Shown: piece after piece, positions 48,268-64,000 of the stretch | Layout: every line of letters begins with the position of its first letter | How positions within the stretch are numbered: position 1 is the first letter of the stretch | Made by a program: the position numbers and the translations under genes | The notes under the pieces: generated by a model | Seen by the model: the letters and a program-made list of their open reading frames with translations, nothing else | Told to the model about the DNA's origin: nothing | Databases searched by the model: none | Source: Halorussus marinus | Lineage (GTDB): Archaea > Halobacteriota > Halobacteria > Halobacteriales > Haladaptataceae | Length of the DNA stretch: 64,000 bases | Assembly: GCF_004765795.1 (NCBI RefSeq) | Contig: NZ_SBIV01000002.1 | Span: forward strand, 124,001-188,000 | Reading direction: 5' to 3'

Positions 48268-49434
48268 TTACCCGGCCGGCGTTTCGGTCTCGGACGCCGT
48301 CTCGAAGCCGAAGCTCGCGTTGACGAGCGGAGTCCCGGTCGGTCCCGCGACCACGAAACGGTACTCGCCGTCGAGCCGGTCGGCCTCGCCCTCGGCCGGC
48401 GGTTCGTCGCCGATCACGGGATCGGCGCCGTCGGCGGGGAAGTAGACGTACGCCGCCTCGCCGGGTGCGAGCGATCGGTTCAGTTCGAGCGTGACGTTCC
48501 TCGCCCCGCGACGGACGCGAACCGTCGACTCGGGCGCGAGCGTCTCGCCGCCCTCGTTCGAGACGACGAAGTGGTCGTCCGCGGAGTCGACGTCGATATC
48601 GGCGGCGACGGTCGCCAGCGCGCGGTCGGCCCACGCCGGGTACTCGACGACGACCCCGCCGAGCGTTTCGAGCGTGAACTCGTATCGGAAGCCGGTCCGG
48701 TCGGTTTCGACGGTCACGTCGAGCCGGTGGATTCGCCCGCGCTCGTCGGCGACGACCGTCGCATCGTACGTCGAGACGTTCCCGAACGCGGTCGAACTCC
48801 GGTTGGGCGCGGTCGCGCGGAGCGTGGTCAGCGTGGATCCGTCGGTCGACCCGACGTCTGCGACCTCGAACTCGCCGGCCCGGAGCGCGGTCTCGACGAG
48901 TCGCGCCAGCGAGGCCTGCTCGGTCACGTCGAACGCCGTCGAGCCGACGACCGGCTCGCCGTCGGGCGACAGCGACGCGTTGGATTTGTCGTACACCGTC
49001 CGGTTCCGGGTGCGGTACTCGTAGAGGGCGACCGACTCGTTCGCCCAGATGTCCGATCGGATCCGCCGGGTACCGTCGTCAGACTGGACGTCGGTGACCG
49101 ACCGGAGCCGGATCGGGGCGTGGTTCGTCCCGACCGCGGCGCGGGCGGTCCCCTGCTGGTCGAACGAGCCGTCGGCCGACCCCGCGGTCCGGACCCGGTA
49201 GGTGTAGCCCGTCTCGGCGAGCGCCGCCCGGTGGGCCGCCACCAGCGCGCTCGCGTTCGAGACGCCGTCGGGGCTCACTCCCGGCGGGAGGTCGGCGCTC
49301 GACGCGTCGGACCGGGCCGTCGTTTCGGTCGGCTCGCCCTCCGCGGCGGTCGTCGCCGTCTGGGCCGCGCTCCCCGCACACCCCGCGAGGACGACGAGCG
49401 CGAGTACCGCGGCTGTCGCCAATCGTGTCGACAT
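48268..49434 (-). CDS. Secreted lipoprotein, paralog of 47301-48173 with an extra C-terminal domain
   Basis: VLAGC lipobox; LPPGVSPDGVSNASALVAAHRAAL. Confidence 0.8.
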   Translation of the reverse strand: MSTRLATAAVLALVVLAGCAGSAAQTATTAAEGEPTETTARSDASSADLPPGVSPDGVSNASALVAAHRAALAETGYTYRVRTAGSADGSFDQQGTARAAVGTNHAPIRLRSVTDVQSDDGTRRIRSDIWANESVALYEYRTRNRTVYDKSNASLSPDGEPVVGSTAFDVTEQASLARLVETALRAGEFEVADVGSTDGSTLTTLRATAPNRSSTAFGNVSTYDATVVADERGRIHRLDVTVETDRTGFRYEFTLETLGGVVVEYPAWADRALATVAADIDVDSADDHFVVSNEGGETLAPESTVRVRRGARNVTLELNRSLAPGEAAYVYFPADGADPVIGDEPPAEGEADRLDGEYRFVVAGPTGTPLVNASFGFETASETETPAG

Positions 49435-58099: not shown

Positions 58100-59350
58100 A
58101 TGTCCACTGGGTACTCACGACGATCCGTCCTCAGGCGGGGCGGCGCCGCTCTCGTCGGCGCCGGCTCGCTCTCGGGCTGTCTCGGGGAGGTCCGGGGCTC
58201 GGAGTCCGCCGTGCGGTTCGGAACGATCTTCCCGCTGTCTGCGGAGGGGCCCCTCGAAGTCCTCGGCACGCACCACCGCCGGGCCGTCGAGCAGGCCGTC
58301 GAAGACGTCCGAGCCGGCGGCGGGCCGCTGGGGCGAGACGTCGAGCTACTGGCCCGCGACAGCGAGGTGAGCCCCGAGGCCGCGGTCGAACGGTGCGAGG
58401 CGCTCCAAGACGAGAACGCCGTCGGGTTCGTCGGCGGCCTCGTGAGCGGCGTCTCGCTCGCGCTCGCCGAACACATCGCCGACGACCCGATCGCGCAGGT
58501 GAGCCAGTCGAGCACGGCCCCGGGGCTCGCCGACCGGGGGTACCGCGAGGACACCAAGTACGTCGGTCGGACCGCGCCCAACGACATCCAGCAGGCGTCC
58601 GTGATGGCGAAGGTCCTCGACGATCCCAAGTACGTCGGCGCCGACGACGTCGCCGTCCTCTACCTCGACGACGCGTTCGGCAACAGTCTGGTCACCGAGG
58701 TCACGGCGGCCGTCGACGCCGACGTGATCGCGGAGGTCCCGTTCGAGTCGGGGGCGGCGTCGTACGACGACACCATCTCGACGCTACTGGCCGACGATCC
58801 GGACGGGGTCGCCGTGGTGGGGTCGCCCGGGAGCACGAAAGACGTGCTCACTCGCGGGCTCAACAGCGACTACGACGGCGAGTGGGTGCTGAGCGCCGGG
58901 CTGGTCCCCGACGCGCTCCCTAACCTCTACACGAACGTGTACGACGCGACGGTGATGTCCCAGCAGTCGAACGGCGCCCAGAAGCTCGCCCAGCGACTCG
59001 AAGACATCGCGCCGCTGGCGCCGTACACCCAACACGCATACGACGCGCTGTTCCTGCAGGCGCTCGCGATCGAGCGAGCCGGCGAGGCGACGCCCGAGGC
59101 GATCGCGAACAACCTCCAGGCGGTGTCGGGCGGTCGGGGCCACACCGTGACGGTCGGGGAGTTCGACCGCGCCCGAAAACTGCTCGACGCCGGCCGGGAG
59201 ATCAACTACGAGGGCGCTTCGGGGAGCGTCGATCTGAACGCCGACCTCGAACCGCTCAGTCCGTACCTGATCCGGGAGGTGTACCGCGGGTCCGTGAGGA
59301 ACCGCGAGCTCGTGAAGACCTCGTTCTTCGAGGGGGGAGACGATGAGTGA
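58100..59350 (+). CDS. Branched-chain-amino-acid-type substrate-binding Tat lipoprotein (BasB-like)
   Basis: SRRSVL...LSGC; GRTAPND..QA, AYDA, INYEGASG; overlaps the transducer start. Confidence 0.85.
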   Translation: MSTGYSRRSVLRRGGAALVGAGSLSGCLGEVRGSESAVRFGTIFPLSAEGPLEVLGTHHRRAVEQAVEDVRAGGGPLGRDVELLARDSEVSPEAAVERCEALQDENAVGFVGGLVSGVSLALAEHIADDPIAQVSQSSTAPGLADRGYREDTKYVGRTAPNDIQQASVMAKVLDDPKYVGADDVAVLYLDDAFGNSLVTEVTAAVDADVIAEVPFESGAASYDDTISTLLADDPDGVAVVGSPGSTKDVLTRGLNSDYDGEWVLSAGLVPDALPNLYTNVYDATVMSQQSNGAQKLAQRLEDIAPLAPYTQHAYDALFLQALAIERAGEATPEAIANNLQAVSGGRGHTVTVGEFDRARKLLDAGREINYEGASGSVDLNADLEPLSPYLIREVYRGSVRNRELVKTSFFEGGDDE

Positions 59351-61769
59351 CGACGACTCCGGGCTCCGCGAGCGGCTGGGTCGGGCGTCGGGCTGGCTCG
59401 AACGCCGGCTCCCCAGCGCGATCCGGCGGAGCTACGCCGCGAAGTTCAACCTCGTGTTGGTGCTCGTGATCGTGCTCGTCGGCGCCATCGGCGTCTTCAC
59501 CCACTTCGACACGCAGGGGCTCGTTCGAGACGACACCGAGGCCGAAATCACCGGTATCGCCCAGCGGGAGGCGACAGCGATCCAGAACTGGGTGAACAAC
59601 AGGAAGACGACCGCGTCGTTCATCGCGACGTCGATCACCGCGGGCGACACCGCCAAGATCCAGGCCAACCTCGAACGGAAACTTGTCGAGGTGCCCGCCG
59701 ACGTCGAGTCGATACACTACATCGGCCGAAACCGCGGGACGATCATGGCGAGCACCGACGACGGGAAGATCGAGACCAGCGTCGCGGGCGAGACTCCCTG
59801 GGCGAACAACCTCACCGACCTCGAACAGGGGACCGTTCGAATGTCCGAGCCCTACGAGACCGACGCCGGGCCGGTCGTGGCGTTCGTCACTCCGGTCAAC
59901 GCCGATCGGGCGATCGTGCTGACGACCTCTCTGGAGAAGCGCTCGCTCGGATTCAGCTCCCCGATCGCCACCGGCGACATCAAGGTGGTCGACGCCGACG
60001 GCACCATCGTCTTCGACAACCGGAACGCGAACATCCTCGACCCGTACGCCGACGGCGAACTCCCAGCGGCCGTCGCGACGGGGATGAACGGCGAGAGCGC
60101 GTTCGAGACGATCTCCGCACAGACCGGGATGGAGTCGGGCAGCTACGTGATGGCCTCGGCCCCGGTCGTCGGGACCGACTGGGTGCTGGCCTACCACGTC
60201 CCGAAACAGCAGGCCTACGGCCTCCAGACGCAGGTGACCCGGAACATCGGGGGTCTGCTGGTCGTGATGCTCGTCGGACTGGGGCTTGTCGGGCTCACCA
60301 TCGGTCGCCGGACCGGCCGGGAGCTCGACGTCCTCTCGGAGAAGGCCGACGCCATCGCACGCGGCGAGCTCGACGTCGACCTCCCCGAGACGCGCCGGGA
60401 GGACGAGCTCGGGTCGCTCATCCACGCGTTCGCGGCGATGCGGACGTATCTCAACACGGTGGCCGATCAGGCGGGCGCGCTCGCCGACCAGAACTTCGAC
60501 GATCCGGTGCTCGACGAGGACGTGCCCGGCACCTTCGGCGACGCGCTCGACCGGATGCAGGGGAACCTCGAAACGATGGTCACCGACATCGAACGCGCCC
60601 GCGACGAGGCCGAGGGCGCGAAACAGGAGGCCGAGGCGCTCAACGAGGCGCTGGTCCAGAAAGCCGGGGAGTTCGGCGAGGTGATGGAGGCGGCCGCCGA
60701 CGGCGACCTCACCCGGCGGATGGACACCGACAGCGACAGCGAGGCGATGGCCCAGATCGCTCGGGAGTTCAACGAGATGATGACCGAACTCGAGGCCACC
60801 GTCGAGGAGGTCCGGAGCTTCGCCGGGAGCGTCGCCAGCGCGAGCGAACAGGTGACAGCCCGGACCGAGGACATCGCCGACACCAGCCAGCAGGTCTCTC
60901 GGGCGAGCCAGCAGCTCTCGGAGGCCGCCCGCGAGCAACAGGAGAACCTCGACACCACGTCGAACGAGGTCAACACCCTCTCGGCCACTATCCAGGAGGT
61001 CGCCGCCTCCGCCGACGAGGTCGCCAAGGCCGCCGAGAACACCGAAGCGCTCGGCGAGGACGGCCGCGAGGCCGCCAACGAGGCGATCGAGATGATGAAC
61101 GAGATCGAGACCGAGACCGAAGCGACCGTCGAACAGATCGACGGGCTCCAGTCCGAGATGGACCAGATCGGCGAGATCGTCGATCTGATCCGGGACATCG
61201 CCGACCAGACCAACCTGCTCGCGTTGAACGCCAACATCGAGGCGGCGGCCGCCGACGGGTCGAGCGACGGCTTCGAAGTGGTCGCCAACGAGATCAAGGC
61301 GCTGGCCGAGGAGTCGAAGGAGGCCGTCGACCAGATCGAAGATCAGATCGCGGAGATTCAGGCCGAGACCGACGACGCGGTCGACGACATCCGCCAGACC
61401 CAATCGCAGGTCTCGGCCGGCGTCGAGACGGTCGACGAGGCCCAGGAGTCGCTGAAGGCCATCGTCGAGAACGTCGAGGAGACCGCGGTCGGCATCCAGC
61501 AGATCAACTCCGCGACCGACGAGCAGGCCAGTTCGACCGAGGAGGTCGTGAGCATGATGGACGACGTGACCCGGCTCAGCGAGGAGTCGGCCGACGAGGC
61601 CGAGCAGGTCGCGGCCGCGACCGAACAGCAGTCCGACGCGGTCTCGGAGGTCACCGACAGCGCCGACCACCTCGCGCGGCAGGCCGACGAACTGATGGAG
61701 ATGCTGGAGGACTTCCGGGTCGAGCGCGAGGAGCCGAGCGAGTCGTCGACGAGCGCGCCCGAGCAGTAG
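59343..61769 (+). CDS. Halobacterial transducer / methyl-accepting chemotaxis protein (BasT-like)
   Basis: Two TM helices, Cache-like sensor region, two HAMP domains, IADQTNLLALNA signalling domain. Confidence 0.93.
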   Translation: MSDDDSGLRERLGRASGWLERRLPSAIRRSYAAKFNLVLVLVIVLVGAIGVFTHFDTQGLVRDDTEAEITGIAQREATAIQNWVNNRKTTASFIATSITAGDTAKIQANLERKLVEVPADVESIHYIGRNRGTIMASTDDGKIETSVAGETPWANNLTDLEQGTVRMSEPYETDAGPVVAFVTPVNADRAIVLTTSLEKRSLGFSSPIATGDIKVVDADGTIVFDNRNANILDPYADGELPAAVATGMNGESAFETISAQTGMESGSYVMASAPVVGTDWVLAYHVPKQQAYGLQTQVTRNIGGLLVVMLVGLGLVGLTIGRRTGRELDVLSEKADAIARGELDVDLPETRREDELGSLIHAFAAMRTYLNTVADQAGALADQNFDDPVLDEDVPGTFGDALDRMQGNLETMVTDIERARDEAEGAKQEAEALNEALVQKAGEFGEVMEAAADGDLTRRMDTDSDSEAMAQIAREFNEMMTELEATVEEVRSFAGSVASASEQVTARTEDIADTSQQVSRASQQLSEAAREQQENLDTTSNEVNTLSATIQEVAASADEVAKAAENTEALGEDGREAANEAIEMMNEIETETEATVEQIDGLQSEMDQIGEIVDLIRDIADQTNLLALNANIEAAAADGSSDGFEVVANEIKALAEESKEAVDQIEDQIAEIQAETDDAVDDIRQTQSQVSAGVETVDEAQESLKAIVENVEETAVGIQQINSATDEQASSTEEVVSMMDDVTRLSEESADEAEQVAAATEQQSDAVSEVTDSADHLARQADELMEMLEDFRVEREEPSESSTSAPEQ

Positions 61770-61797: not shown

Positions 61798-62319
61798 TCA
61801 CTCGCCGTCGCGGTCGAACCGCTCGGCCGCCGATTCGAACGCGGTCTCGGACCGCTCGCGCGACCGGCGGCCCTCCTTCTCGGCGATCGCCTCGGGGTCG
61901 GGGTTCGCGTCGTCGTCGATCCGCGCCCACGAGTCGTGGACTTTGGCGTGACACCACCGACAGAGGTACACCGTGATCTCGTGGCTCAGGGTCCCGGCCT
62001 CGTCCGCGTACGAGAGGTGGTGTTCTTCGAGCAGGGGGCGCTCGTCGGAGTGGGCCATCCGGCGTTCTCCCAACCCACACCGGACGCACGCTCGATCGCG
62101 GTTCCGACACCGGTAGTGGGGACACGACTCCCAGTCGCCGTCGGGGACCGCCGGACACCGCAGGTCGTCCTCGCGGCGCTCGCGGGCGAACGCCGGATCC
62201 CGTTCGGGGTGTTCGAAGGCGTACCGGCACTTTCCCTCGTCGGTGAGATGGTCACAGAGCCCGGCGTGGTCGTAGGGATCGTCCACGCCGACGGGCGTCC
62301 CCGAGGGCGTCTCTTTCAC
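61798..62319 (-). CDS. Conserved Cys/His-rich haloarchaeal protein with HNH-like motif
   Basis: CVRC...EEHHLSY...LCRWCHAKVH; GTG start at 62319 (62328 also possible). Confidence 0.75.
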   Translation of the reverse strand: MKETPSGTPVGVDDPYDHAGLCDHLTDEGKCRYAFEHPERDPAFARERREDDLRCPAVPDGDWESCPHYRCRNRDRACVRCGLGERRMAHSDERPLLEEHHLSYADEAGTLSHEITVYLCRWCHAKVHDSWARIDDDANPDPEAIAEKEGRRSRERSETAFESAAERFDRDGE

Positions 62320-62404
62320 GCCCGCCACTCGGGGGTCTACGGATAAAAATGTGTAGCGACGCGCCAGCGCAACGCTTTTGCTCGCGCCGCGAACACCTCG
62401 GCCC

Positions 62405-62752
62405 GTGGAACTGATACACGAGTCGGGCGGCGAGCGACAGACCCTCGCTACCGACGTGGAGACGGCCGATTCGTTCCTCTCGCGGGCGAAGGGCCTGATG
62501 TTCAGGCGGTCGATTCCCGACGACTACGCGCTGGTCTTCCGGTTCGACGGCGTCGGGACCCGGGACGTCCACATGGTGTTCGTGCCGTTCGGGCTCGACG
62601 TGCTGTGGCTCCGGGACGGGGAAGTCCGGCACAAAGAGCGCCTCTCGGCGTGGACCGGGCTGGCCGAAGCCGAGGCCGACACGCTGGTCGAACTCCCGGC
62701 CGGCGCCGCCGACGGCGTGGCTGTCGGCGATGCGGTTGGGCTCGACTCGTAG
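62405..62752 (+). CDS. DUF192-family protein
   Basis: ADSFLSRAKGLMFR, HMVFVPFGLDV, VELPAG. Confidence 0.88.
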   Translation: MELIHESGGERQTLATDVETADSFLSRAKGLMFRRSIPDDYALVFRFDGVGTRDVHMVFVPFGLDVLWLRDGEVRHKERLSAWTGLAEAEADTLVELPAGAADGVAVGDAVGLDS

Positions 62753-62823
62753 GTCCGACAGACCCGCCTGTCACAAAGGCCCCCTTAAGCCGGTCGGGCT
62801 CCGAGCCCCTGTCGTGGTTTCGC

Positions 62824-62862
62824 ATGACCCGTGAACGTTTTATTCGGGGGCTTCCCGAATAG
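62824..62862 (+). other. Leader ORF MTRERFIRGLPE overlapping the cimA start out of frame
   Basis: ATG ACC CGT GAA CGT TTT ATT CGG GGG CTT CCC GAA TAG; first ATG after the TATA-like CTTAAG at about 62784. Confidence 0.6.
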
Positions 62863-64000
62863 CACACCTCTCTCAGACCGGGACGTACAGCTGTTAGATA
62901 CGACGCTTCGCGACGGCGAGCAGGCACCGGGCATCTCGCTGGCGCCCGAGGAGAAAGCCGAGATAGCCGCGGCGCTCGACGCGGCGGGCGTCTCGGTCAT
63001 CGAGGCCGGGAGCGCCTGCACCGGCGAGGGCGAGCGCGAGGCGATCCGTCGGGTGACCGACCGGGACCTCGACGCTAAGATCACCAGCTTCGCCCGCGGG
63101 GTCCGCGACGACGTCGACCTCGCGCTCGACTGCGACGTCGACGGGGTCGGCATCGTGGTGCCGGCCAGCGACCGCCACGTCGAGGGGAAGGTCGGGACGA
63201 CCCGCGAGGAGGTGGTCGAGACGACCGCCGACCTCGTGGCCTACGCCCGCGACCACGGCCTGTGGGTCGAGGTGCTCGGCGAGGACGGCTCGCGGGCCGA
63301 CCTCGACTTCCTCGAAACCCTGATGGCCGAAGCTCTGGACGCCGGCGCCGACCGGGTGTGTTTCTGCGACACGGTGGGCCACGCAGGTCCCGAGCGCACC
63401 TACGAGGCGGTCTCGCGGCTCGCCGAACTGGGCCCGACCAGCACCCACACCCACGACGACCTCGGGCTCGCGGTGACCAACGCCCTCGCGAGCCTCGCGG
63501 CGGGCGCCGACCTCGTCCACGCCACGGTCAACGGCGTCGGCGAGCGGGCGGGCAACGTCGCCCTCGAAGAGGTCGCGATCGCGCTCGACCACTGCTACGG
63601 AGTCGAGACCGCGGACACGACTCGACTCTACGACCTCGCGCGCGTGGTCGCGGACGCGACCGGCGTCGCGCTCGCGCCGAACAAGGCGGTCGTCGGCGAG
63701 AACGCGTTCGCCCACGAGTCGGGCATCCACACCGACGGCACGCTCAAAGACGAGCGGATGTACGAGCCGTACCCGCCCGAGAGGGTGGGCCGCGAGCGCC
63801 GGCTCGTGCTCGGCAAGCACACCGGTCGGGCGGGCGCGAAGGCCGCGCTCGCCGAGCACGGCGTCGAAGTCGACGACGACGAGCTCGGCGCGGTTGTCGC
63901 CCGGGTCCAGCGGCTCGCCGAGCGGGGCAAGCGCGTGACCGACGCCGACCTGCTCGCCATCGCCGAGGACGTGCAGGGACGGGACCGCGACCGGCGAATC
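62831..64000 (+). CDS. cimA: (R)-citramalate synthase, LeuA/CimA family (3' truncated by window edge; absent from ORF track)
   Basis: LLDTTLRDGEQAPG, IEAGSA, EDGSRAD, CDTVG, HTHDDLGLAVTN, NGVGERAGN, AHESGIH; apparent in-frame start is the GTG at 62831. Confidence 0.85.
   Translation, partial: MNVLFGGFPNSTPLSDRDVQLLDTTLRDGEQAPGISLAPEEKAEIAAALDAAGVSVIEAGSACTGEGEREAIRRVTDRDLDAKITSFARGVRDDVDLALDCDVDGVGIVVPASDRHVEGKVGTTREEVVETTADLVAYARDHGLWVEVLGEDGSRADLDFLETLMAEALDAGADRVCFCDTVGHAGPERTYEAVSRLAELGPTSTHTHDDLGLAVTNALASLAAGADLVHATVNGVGERAGNVALEEVAIALDHCYGVETADTTRLYDLARVVADATGVALAPNKAVVGENAFAHESGIHTDGTLKDERMYEPYPPERVGRERRLVLGKHTGRAGAKAALAEHGVEVDDDELGAVVARVQRLAERGKRVTDADLLAIAEDVQGRDRDRRI

Follow-up and report, generated by a model that had tools for sequence, protein, structure and literature searches.

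The window, a stretch of 64,000 nucleotides from Halorussus marinus, runs out inside a gene (cimA) whose product belongs to the (R)-citramalate/2-isopropylmalate synthase family (NF002085, 452 bits; TIGR02090, 429 bits) and measures 515 aa when counted from GTG 62831. The protein carries the domains PF00682, PF08502 and PF22617, combining an HMGL-like catalytic domain with the motif DTTLRDGEQ and a C-terminal LeuA_dimer domain, as is found in LeuA/CimA synthases, and the NCBI names are '(R)-citramalate synthase' and '2-isopropylmalate synthase'. Its putative assignment to CimA rather than LeuA rests on these database names and on the isoleucine auxotrophy of a Haloferax leuA1 mutant, as the accessible text of PMC8305020 reports that transposon insertion in Haloferax volcanii HVO_0644 (leuA1/cimA) leads to a requirement for isoleucine.

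The 5' end of the gene is overlapped by a leader ORF, which starts at ATG 62824 (ATG ACC CGT GAA CGT TTT ATT CGG GGG CTT CCC GAA TAG) and encodes MTRERFIRGLPE in 12 codons before terminating at TAG 62860-62862 (Table 1). The cimA frame is +1 relative to this ORF, the leader being in frame -1 relative to cimA, and opens directly after a TGA (62825-62827) that overlaps the leader ATG as ATGA. GTG 62831 is the sole ATG, GTG or TTG in this frame ahead of DTTLRDGEQ. On re-reading, the layout described by the first-pass annotation (CTTAAG, ATG 62824, the 12-codon ORF, cimA in +1 and GTG 62831) proved right, as did its remark that T-ending codons are atypical here. Among the 13,489 codons of 26 long high-GC3 ORFs in the window, ATT makes up 4.5% of Ile, TTT 9.2% of Phe and CTT 2.6% of Leu, with CGT (4.1% of Arg), TTA (1.4% of Leu) and GTT (3.0%) also uncommon. 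Two slip sites had been proposed, TTT-ATT-C (62839-62845) and GGG-CTT-C (62848-62854); the second was dropped because its position is not conserved in the alignment of leaders of the window's type, where relatives have CTC, TTC, CCA and others. Transcription is predicted to start at a conserved (G/C/A)TGG, whose G at alignment column 6 is at least 90% conserved among window-type leaders, and would leave a 5' UTR of less than about 10 nt.

Table 1. Features at the 5' end of cimA in the Halorussus marinus window.
Feature	Position	Strand	Basis or remark
TATA-like box CTTAAG, putative cimA promoter	62784..62789	+	TTTAA/TTATAT-like box 35-39 nt upstream of the leader ATG in the window-type loci shown
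Conserved (G/C/A)TGG, predicted transcription start region	62814..62817	+	7-10 nt upstream of ATG
Leader ORF encoding MTRERFIRGLPE, ATG to TAG	62824..62862	+	ATG leader in the same frame in 30/30 orthologous loci
CGTGAAC, includes in-frame GTG 62831 (annotated start, possibly secondary)	62830..62836	+	Leader codon 3 NGT in 104/126
Putative shift site CGT TTT ATT C (leader frame Arg-Phe-Ile; TTC opens the cimA frame)	62836..62845	+	Conservation
Hairpin UUAUUCGGG-GGCUU-CCCGAAUAG, Ile codon to leader stop	62840..62862	+	Folding against shuffles, 117 leaders
cimA coding region, +1 frame, continues past the window end	62843..64000	+	Protein profile matches

The conservation of this arrangement was assessed in an unbiased sample of 30 cimA orthologs from 19 genera, which were picked by protein similarity alone and not by motif. 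An ATG-started leader ORF in frame -1, reading through an Ile codon, was present in 30/30. The window's form (..CGA TTT ATT C followed by a hairpin) accounted for 27 of these, with CG(A/T) TTT ATT invariant in 27/27, and the remaining three carried a different leader of the same layout. Since it recurs in 27 of 30 loci found by protein similarity alone, the combination of ATG, frame offset and CG(A/T) TTT ATT is, by this comparison, far beyond chance. Among 126 distinct window-type leaders, which are 11-21 codons long and stop in the zero frame soon after the site, a scan of three frames placed cimA in +1 relative to the leader in 126/126. Such a leader was absent from seven non-halobacterial archaeal homolog loci, which have ordinary in-frame starts.

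The three other orthologs match the Rfam family RF03001 (leuA-Halobacteria RNA) at 73.3, 69.0 and 73.3 bits (gathering score 47.9). No RF03001 match at E up to 10 was found in window positions 62600-63100 (threshold 47.9 bits), nor in the window-type orthologs L019 and L030; the Rfam scan of the window returned a single miRNA match (E 0.52), which was judged to be chance. In other haloarchaeal families RF03001 occupies the 5' end of this gene and shares with the window a leaderless ATG ORF, a ..GAA ATT C site and an early stop. In place of the GGAUAGAGGAAGUCG..CGGCUGG block, which is absent, the window has a hairpin on the 3' side of the Ile codon. Across 114 distinct RF03001-type leaders, the leader-frame ATG is kept in 114/114, about 30 nt downstream of a TATA box, and the codons in this frame are GGN, with all four bases represented, CGN or TGY, GAA, and ATT or ATC, so that variation falls on third positions of leader-frame codons (GGN CGN GAA ATY). 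The Ile codon is invariant in 114/114 (ATT 106, ATC 8) and the leader stop is the 3rd to 8th codon counting from it. In the 105 loci in which spacing was scored, the distance from the motif to DTTLRDGEQ equals 1 mod 3 in every case across 21 different lengths, placing the gene in +1 in 105/105 when three frames were scanned, and no cimA-frame stop intervenes (0/107). Many variants read GAGTAAGTCG, with a cimA-frame TAA within the motif and the leader frame still open. The function of RF03001 was not found in print by full-text search, the supplement of the paper describing it (PMC5737381) being outside reach.

Downstream of the Ile codon the pattern of variation changes frame. Variability there is highest at cimA-frame third positions in both the window type (0.948 vs 0.743 and 0.706) and the RF03001 type (0.871 vs 0.786 and 0.737). 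Comparison of the loci establishes that the leader ATG, the frame offset, the Ile codon and the early leader stop are all conserved, and that the sequence varies like codons of the leader frame as far as the Ile codon and is constrained in the cimA frame beyond it. Public start annotations for cimA disagree, including MxDLFGG, MKF.., long upstream starts and truncated forms, e.g. MRLL and MDSDD, and a Natronomonas pharaonis record begins the protein at a GTG 3' of the RF03001-type leader. One public Halocatena marina protein (P0070) is in frame from the leader ATG and two other entries of the species are not.

The comparison also brings to light an amino-acid-matched Leu version on the paralog leuA, as the first-pass annotation had surmised in looking to leuA homologs for a CTT-C site. 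The leuA genes of the window's own genome and of 18 relatives have a TATA box, a leaderless ATG and the sequence CGA GTT CTT C in frame -1 (19/19 loci read), with the Leu codon CTT occupying the place of the cimA Ile codon in all 19. Two DUF7528 genes of Halorussus marinus, a family unrelated to cimA and leuA, carry an Ile-type and a Leu-type leader, respectively, in the +1 frame, and DUF7528 is the gene at 8 of 9 further non-cimA loci with RF03001-type leaders. No informative Pfam matches came from the genes next to these two, and no sequence relative of DUF7528 with a solved structure was found.

Overlapping ORFs with the product in the +1 frame, an early zero-frame stop and a conserved shift site with a slow A-site codon, constant at synonymous positions, are among the hallmarks of a programmed +1 frameshift. 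It is probable, judging from these alignments, that cimA is expressed mainly via such a shift at a hungry Ile codon; this frameshift reading was put forward in the first-pass annotation and is now supported by the conserved ATG, offset and Ile codon together with the Leu version on leuA. Ribosomes would initiate at the 5'-proximal ATG 62824 on a leaderless or nearly leaderless mRNA, read MTRERF and arrive at ATT (62842-62844), a rare Ile codon. Under a shortage of charged Ile-tRNA, the A site would be empty and a move of +1 base would bring the ribosome onto TTC GGG GGC.., the cimA frame; when isoleucine is plentiful, the ribosome would keep its frame and terminate at TAG 62860 after 12 codons. 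CimA, the first enzyme of the pyruvate route to isoleucine, would then be made in inverse proportion to isoleucine supply, which the leader would gauge. The exact slip position and the hungry-codon trigger are what we infer from this pattern, and the trans-frame product would be expected to continue after MTRER with FFGGFPNSTPLSDR (ATT unread) or FIGGFPNSTPLSDR (slip after Ile). As a counterpoint, the P-site tRNA would re-pair at only two of three positions after a +1 slip (UUU to UUA; GAA to AAA in the RF03001 type). In addition, the peptide LFGG.P is kept at the protein level 3' of RF03001-type leaders with ordinary codons, so the TTA-TTC of the window could also be a cimA-frame reading.

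Two further elements may contribute to the shift. A local hairpin is predicted in window-type leaders, with a mean z-score of -3.29 against shuffles over 117 distinct leaders and z < -2 in 102/117; only this local hairpin is significant, as folding of the whole 89-nt leader gave no signal (z = 0.36). Any role of the hairpin would have to account for its position, since it starts at the Ile codon and not 5-9 nt beyond, which precludes downstream stimulation of the classical kind at that moment. At the position of CGTGAAC, many relatives read GGTGATC, which is complementary to the 16S 3' tail GAUCACC, and this SD-like GUGA(U)C is possibly an internal Shine-Dalgarno-like stimulator.

An alternative, which we hold to be unlikely, is that cimA starts at GTG 62831 without any frameshift and that the ATG leader is a regulatory uORF, from which ribosomes occlude or compete with the GTG 7 nt downstream while access to it is modulated by the hairpin or by stalling at the Ile codon. 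The N-terminus would then be (M)NVLFGGFPNSTPLSDR. This GTG is the one canonical in-frame start of the window, it is kept in 23/27 window-type orthologs, databases annotate MxDLFGG, and LFGG.P is conserved at the protein level. Among the 126 window-type leaders the position reads GTG 104, CGG 17, GGG 2, ATG 2 and CTG 1, and codon 3 of the leader stays NGT in 104 of them across four amino acids (AGT 36, GGT 36, CGT 31, TGT 1), which points to selection on the GTG itself, be it as a start codon or as an SD-like GUGA. However, CGG, GGG or CTG replaces it in 20/126 leaders, and four leaders have no canonical in-frame start whatsoever; in the protein-based sample GGG, CGG, CTG and CGG stand in its place in L023, L026, L029 and L030, respectively, and L023 and L029 lack any ATG, GTG or TTG in the cimA frame. 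In RF03001-type leaders, the codon taken for a start reads GCG in 54, GTG in 47, GAG in 10 and GGG in 3 of 114, varying like a four-fold degenerate Arg codon of the leader frame; by this alignment its variable base is the third position of that Arg codon, and the "GTG" corresponds to only one of four Arg codons. A canonical in-frame start at or before this GNG is missing in 42/105 RF03001-type loci, and missing altogether in 6/105, as it is in 13/19 leuA loci. Moreover, the GTG would lie beneath a ribosome that stalls at ATT, so that isoleucine shortage would lower, not raise, initiation there, the wrong sign for feedback. The first-pass annotation had proposed to look for conservation of the leader ATG, its offset and TTTATT rather than of the GTG, and across families the former (with the -1 offset) are kept and the GTG is not universal. 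The uORF-occlusion alternative raised by the same annotation is weakened to that extent, yet the window's form does keep an in-frame GTG, which in this lineage may supply a basal, frameshift-independent start.

A second alternative, to which only a slight probability can be given, is that a structured RNA or protein-binding site, riboswitch-like or r-protein-like, with RF03001 as its larger form, drives start-codon-independent or near-cognate initiation in the cimA frame, the ATG ORF being incidental. Rfam files RF03001 as a cis-regulatory RNA, its 3' arm and tail (CGGCUGG) have exactly the sequence of the 3' strand of 16S helix 45, and a hairpin is conserved in both forms although the stem sequences differ from lineage to lineage. 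Against this reading, the variable RF03001 positions outside the hairpin (29, 32, 38) have a period of three and coincide with leader-frame third positions, the change from ATT to ATC preserves Ile, and the ATG is kept in 114/114 and 30/30 loci despite lineage differences in the surrounding bases. The leader stop always falls within a few codons, the Leu or Ile codon fits the pathway of the gene, and the leuA leader has no comparable hairpin. Correction of the frame in the mRNA, by transcriptional slippage or editing, is scarcely credible, as nothing direct favours it beyond the T4 (62838-62841) and G5 (62846-62850) runs, which are short and vary in length (G4 to G5; absent in L030-type leaders), and the RF03001 type and leuA have just A3/T2 at the site. 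TTTATT was also considered as an internal TATA box for a downstream start and rejected, the spacer to the catalytic motif being frame-locked and stop-free with no start codon following.

The proposed frameshift has its closest parallel in bacterial prfB, encoding release factor 2, which is autoregulated by a +1 frameshift at CUU_UGA_C. The two would have in common a short first ORF with the main ORF in +1, a zero-frame stop that ends non-shifted ribosomes, a shift at an A-site codon that is slow to decode and whose decoding factor is the very thing provided by the gene or pathway and, possibly, an SD-like element inside the ORF shortly before the site (many relatives have GGUGAUC, complementary to 16S GAUCACC). 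They differ in that the cimA sensor would be a sense codon (Ile) read by aminoacyl-tRNA and not a stop codon read by a release factor, and in that the cimA case is archaeal, with a leaderless or nearly leaderless message, a biosynthetic enzyme as product and other slip codons. Bacterial ilv and leu operons are controlled by attenuation, in which a ribosome translating a short leader signals how much of the end-product amino acid is available. The logic of the leader ribosome as a gauge is the same, whereas cimA has one regulatory codon and not a run, no terminator/antiterminator pair and no U-tract after the hairpin, and its main ORF overlaps the leader out of frame, so that the output would be the translational frame and not read-through. 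A leader-peptide transcription attenuator was accordingly rejected for the window, where there is one Ile codon and one hairpin, with AGCACACC after the hairpin.

In hungry-codon frameshifts and at the Ty1 site CUU_AGG_C, +1 shifting is likewise favoured by an A-site codon that is rare or starved, according to the accessible part of the review PMC5009743, and CUU, found in the leuA version, is the classical slippery Leu codon. The same part of the review regards starvation-induced shifts as mostly adventitious, whereas the cimA site is conserved across families and tied to the biosynthetic gene that it matches. A start problem in Haloferax volcanii leuA2 (HVO_1510) was described by Pfeiffer and Dyall-Smith (2021), who speculated on ribosomal slippage and on control by leucine; there the most N-terminal peptide in ArcPP begins at position 62, ahead of Met-93, which is the next in-frame start (PMC8305020). 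In its accessible text that paper concerns leuA2 only, leaves CTG versus ATG as the start undecided, does not name a shift codon and raises neither a start problem for leuA1/cimA (HVO_0644) nor a link to RF03001 or DUF7528. The literature search found no other paper on a cimA/leuA frameshift in archaea, and the accessible portions of an archaeal recoding review (PMC8211752) and of a curation paper (PMC4500146) make no mention of one.

Whether the leaders on cimA, leuA and the two DUF7528 genes form one translational regulon of modular hungry-codon frameshift leaders in Halobacteria is a question on which we judge the chances to be even. The Ile module would exist in two forms, the window's hairpin form and RF03001, and the Leu module as CGA GTT CTT C, each a leaderless mini-ORF that hands ribosomes over to the +1 frame only while the cognate tRNA is uncharged. 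To our knowledge, no counterpart of bacterial attenuation or T-boxes for branched-chain amino acids has been described in archaea. If the reading is true, this would be the first amino-acid-sensing programmed frameshift in place of attenuation in archaea, and a conserved +1 shift set off when the A site stays empty over an Ile or Leu codon would constitute a new and very compact amino-acid sensor. The orphan RF03001 would gain a mechanism, as a 5' frameshift stimulator and perhaps a mimic of 16S helix 45. Haloferax volcanii, with its tractable genetics and public proteomes, offers a direct way to test the reading. It would also explain the inconsistent start-codon assignment of haloarchaeal leuA and cimA, and would place DUF7528 in Ile/Leu physiology.

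The first-pass annotation had placed a CTTAAG box, an upstream ATG at 62824, a +1 cimA frame and a GTG at 62831 at the head of the citramalate synthase gene (cimA), and these coordinates agreed when re-read in the window. Relative to the leader, the long synthase ORF is shifted by +1 and is open immediately after a TGA at 62825-62827, and the GTG is the sole ATG, GTG or TTG in that frame upstream of the catalytic motif DTTLRDGEQ. The product belongs to the LeuA/CimA family (NF002085, 452 bits; TIGR02090, 429 bits; domains PF00682, PF08502 and PF22617), and among named proteins the closest are from Halorussus, labelled (R)-citramalate synthase or 2-isopropylmalate synthase. The T-ending leader codons had been described as atypical, which was confirmed by counts over 13,489 codons from 26 long ORFs of the window with high GC3: ATT accounts for 4.5% of Ile, TTT for 9.2% of Phe and CTT for 2.6% of Leu codons, and CGT (4.1% of Arg) and TTA (1.4% of Leu) are also rare. 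It is proposed that translation would begin at ATG 62824 and that the ribosomes would slip +1 into the cimA frame either at ATT 62842 or immediately past it; judged from comparative sequence evidence, this is probably how cimA is mainly made. The case for Ile-tRNA shortage as the trigger of the shift is evenly balanced.

Features of the cimA leader region and of the two DUF7528 genes of the same genome (G000)
Feature	Position	Strand	Remarks
808-aa ORF, methyl-accepting transducer-like	59343-61769	+	judged by eye
DUF7097 protein	61798-62328	-	281 bits
DUF192 protein	62378-62752	+	66 bits; ends 72 nt upstream of leader ATG
TATA-like CTTAAG	62784-62789	+	read in window sequence
Leader ORF MTRERFIRGLPE*	ATG 62824 to stop 62860-62862	+	ATG ACC CGT GAA CGT TTT ATT CGG GGG CTT CCC GAA TAG
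Hairpin, loop GGCUU	62840-62848 paired with 62854-62862	+	computed fold; from Ile codon to leader stop
DUF7528 gene	G000:C8:48484-48900	-	leader MTPRPSSPGDPEDRGSRQPAADREIPRRT* (ATGA, ..GAA ATT C), Ile type, RF03001-like; L507 spans 48484-48960
DUF7528 gene	G000:C1:632797-633180	-	leader MTRSVQAPDRVLLGR* with GAT CGA GTT CTT C, leuA-type module; L508 spans 632797-633260

In a sample selected by protein similarity only (41 related genomes searched, 39 matched; 30 loci from 19 genera returned), the block ATG(A/G)CC NNN G(A/G)N CG(A/T) TTT ATT, followed by a hairpin, is common to 27 of the 30 orthologs. Conservation of the GTG rather than of the leader had been named as able to refute the frameshift reading; the ATG, the -1 frame offset and TTTATT proved invariant (27/27), and the in-frame GTG is swapped for GGG (L023), CGG (L026, L030) or CTG (L029), so that the reading is supported by the tests set out for it. 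The cimA frames of L023 and L029 contain no canonical start. Within the window's genus, the GTG is found at -66, -87, -108, -129 or -156 from DTTLRDGEQ, owing to insertions whose length differences are all multiples of three and which hold zero stops. A strict block pattern, which misses the window itself (CGT there, CGA in the pattern), matched 25 of 301 genomes drawn from across the class, a single time in each and always at cimA, and gave 0 for the reversed control. In a scan of species representatives, the 80 of 111 stretches listed included a minority of bacterial chance matches, and the block was found in Halorussus, Halococcus, Halovenus, Haloarchaeobius, Haladaptatus, Halodesulfurarchaeum, Salinibaculum, some Natronomonas and others. 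Requiring DTTLRDGEQ within 300 nt left, among the matches listed, 126 distinct window-type leaders of 11-21 codons, all 126 with DTTLRDGEQ in the +1 frame and no intervening stop in a three-frame scan; ATT is followed by C (113), G (11) or A (2), the GTG site is occupied in the cimA frame by GTG (104), CGG (17), GGG (2), ATG (2) or CTG (1), and a canonical in-frame start is absent in 4. ATG, CGW and TTTATT are fixed by this pattern, and the claim of their invariance is drawn solely from the 27 protein-selected loci.

The remaining three orthologs (L024, L027 and L028) match RF03001, the Rfam 'leuA-Halobacteria RNA', with 73.3, 69.0 and 73.3 bits (gathering score 47.9); no such match was found in the window or in two loci of the window type. 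The core pattern of this sister form occurs in at least 117 stretches from Halorubrum, Natrinema, Natrialba, Haloarcula, Halorhabdus, Halarchaeum and others, and a looser pattern (at most one mismatch) matches 219 of the 301 genomes. After removal of four bacterial chance matches without GAA at +33, the set comprised 114 distinct leaders (matches listed plus matching loci fetched), in 105 of which the flank reaches DTTLRDGEQ. Among these, an ATG in frame -1 is present in 114/114, usually 21-36 nt upstream of the motif and about 30 nt past the TATA box; its surroundings vary by lineage and the ATG alone is universal. From this layout, the RF03001-type leader is a predicted leaderless mini-ORF. 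The last leader-frame codons of the motif, among the matches listed, are GGN (C 57, G 38, A 13, T 6), CGN (97) or TGY (17), GAA, and ATT (106) or ATC (8). Variation falls on three bases spaced by 3 nt, all at third positions; Ile is constant, and the cimA-frame residue there alternates between F, S and L. Counting from the Ile codon, the leader terminates at the third to eighth codon, and in many variants GAGTAAGTCG places a TAA in the cimA frame within the motif, with the leader frame open. The cimA-frame 'start' GNG is GCG in 54, GTG in 47, GAG in 10 and GGG in 3 of the 114 listed, and up to and including that codon a canonical in-frame start is lacking in 42 of 105, 6 of the 105 lacking one altogether. 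Again among the matches listed, the motif-DTTLRDGEQ distance equals 1 mod 3 in 105/105 (21 lengths, 91-229 nt), and cimA-frame stops between the two number 0/107. Downstream of the Ile codon, variability is highest at cimA-frame third positions, both in the window type (0.948 vs 0.743 and 0.706) and in the RF03001 type (0.871 vs 0.786 and 0.737); between ATG and RF03001 motif, this analysis gave no clear codon signal. The variable-base positions, stops and spacing thus point to a codon-like constraint in the leader frame up to the Ile codon and in the cimA frame after it. Separately, the RF03001 hairpin of L024, L027 and L028 matches 16S helix 45 exactly in sequence between its own 3' arm plus tail (..GGCGGCUGG) and the 3' strand of the helix (..UGCGGCUGGAUCA; L504:1-40); it has a GNRA-like loop and similar 5' flanks. 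This likeness may be rRNA mimicry or coincidence.

The genome's second synthase (G000:C9), 41% identical to the cimA product, is headed by TTAAATAGG, about 30 nt, and then ATG TCC GAC .. GAT CGA GTT CTT CGA GGG .. TGA, with the enzyme in the +1 frame and no ATG, GTG or TTG upstream of DTTLRDGEQ. Twenty relatives of this leuA paralog were fetched, 18 with the catalytic motif in the piece (L485 and L497 without), giving 19 loci with the genome's own. A -1-frame ATG and an invariant CGAGTTCTTC are present in 19/19, and a canonical in-frame start is absent in 13/19. An analogous CTT-C site had been suggested for leuA homologs, and GTT CTT C indeed stands at the matching place in 19/19: after the same CGA, the leucine enzyme has Val-Leu (GTT CTT C) and the isoleucine enzyme Phe-Ile (TTT ATT C). 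In the available part of PMC8305020, the start codon of the Haloferax ortholog set of this paralog, leuA2 (HVO_1510), is described as inconsistent; the next in-frame start is Met-93, and the most N-terminal ArcPP peptide begins before it, at position 62. It was speculated there in 2021 that a start at the ATG considered for leuA2 would require ribosomal slippage, perhaps for leucine control. That part also reports isoleucine auxotrophy after transposon insertion in leuA1 (HVO_0644), for which it raises no start problem (PMC8305020).

Relatives of the window's genus carry the RF03001-like match not at cimA but at the head of a DUF7528 gene (146 aa; PF24372, 186 bits), which lies in the +1 frame. 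The genome itself has two such genes; over the stretch read, the one on C8 lacks a canonical in-frame start. L505 and L506 are relatives of these loci. A whole-genome regex scan gave specific modules at four loci (cimA, leuA and both DUF7528 genes), plus one GATCGAGTTCTTC on C5, which probably lies in coding sequence and shows neither a promoter nor an ATG context in the 60 nt read. DUF7528-like sequence also follows in the +1 frame at 8 of 9 further RF03001-type loci without DTTLRDGEQ. Because the unrelated DUF7528 carries the same block, preceded by an ATG and always offset by one base from its frame, the block is unlikely to be merely the synthase N-terminus, and by their distribution the leaders are modular.

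Several points were counted against the frameshift reading. Among the window-type matches listed, GTG is kept in 104/126 and codon 3 is NGT across four amino acids; an LFGG.P peptide is conserved after RF03001-type leaders using ordinary codons; the P-site tRNA re-pairs at only two of three positions after a +1 slip; ordinary starts are found at 7 non-halobacterial homolog loci; and the Natronomonas pharaonis record begins at a GTG downstream of an RF03001-type leader, a position occupied in Natronomonas by a decayed window-type block (GTG ACG ACA CTA TTC GGG GAC). Initiation at the GTG with a competing uORF, set beside the leaders in which that codon is replaced, is nonetheless unlikely. A non-canonical start directed by the RNA element, set beside the codon-like constraint in the leader frame, is quite improbable, and correction of the frame at the mRNA level is barely credible.

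Natronomonas RF03001-type leaders carry a TAA in the cimA frame, and their decayed block has lost the ATG and kept the -1-frame ATT via the rare Leu codons CTA/TTA in 4/4 species read; L509 (G152; region about -160 to -40 from DTTLRDGEQ) is 100% identical to N. pharaonis P0054. Public cimA start annotations (P0001-P0120) are inconsistent, including MxDLFGG (from GTG), MKF.. (from the GNG of RF03001), long upstream forms via RIEEVA.., and truncated MRLL, MDSDDDVQLL and MALSDREVQFL. In Halocatena marina P0070 (MTGDRFIRGPPESTPLS..), the leader ATG and cimA share one frame; P0045 and P0053 of the same species (cf. L325) need the +1 shift and differ from it in a G5C7 run, either through an error in sequencing the homopolymer or through natural bypass of the frameshift.

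With regard to possible stimulators of the preferred +1 shift, local folds of 117 distinct leaders gave a mean z of -3.29 vs shuffles (z < -2 in 102/117), the first paired base lying at -3 to +6 relative to the A of ATT. Stems differ by lineage (e.g. GGGUGC/GCACCC, GGGGC/GCCCC, GGGA/UCCC) while the encoded peptide changes too, which argues that the hairpin structure itself is selected. Downstream frameshift stimulators have a classical spacing of 5-9 nt, whereas the window-type hairpin is placed otherwise; one reading is that it would hinder initiation at the internal GTG and leave the 5'-terminal ATG free. Many leaders have GGUGAUC two bases upstream of UUU AUU, complementary to GAUCACC in the 16S rRNA 3' end (..CUGCGGCUGGAUCACCUCCU); the window has only GUGAAC there. 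The prfB gene has an SD-like stimulator, which the GGUGAUC of these leaders may resemble.

Autoregulatory +1 frameshifting is a mechanism class already known. According to the literature searched, a hungry sense-codon sensor matched to its pathway and the archaeal host domain are apparently new, as are the links of the frameshift leader to RF03001 and to DUF7528.
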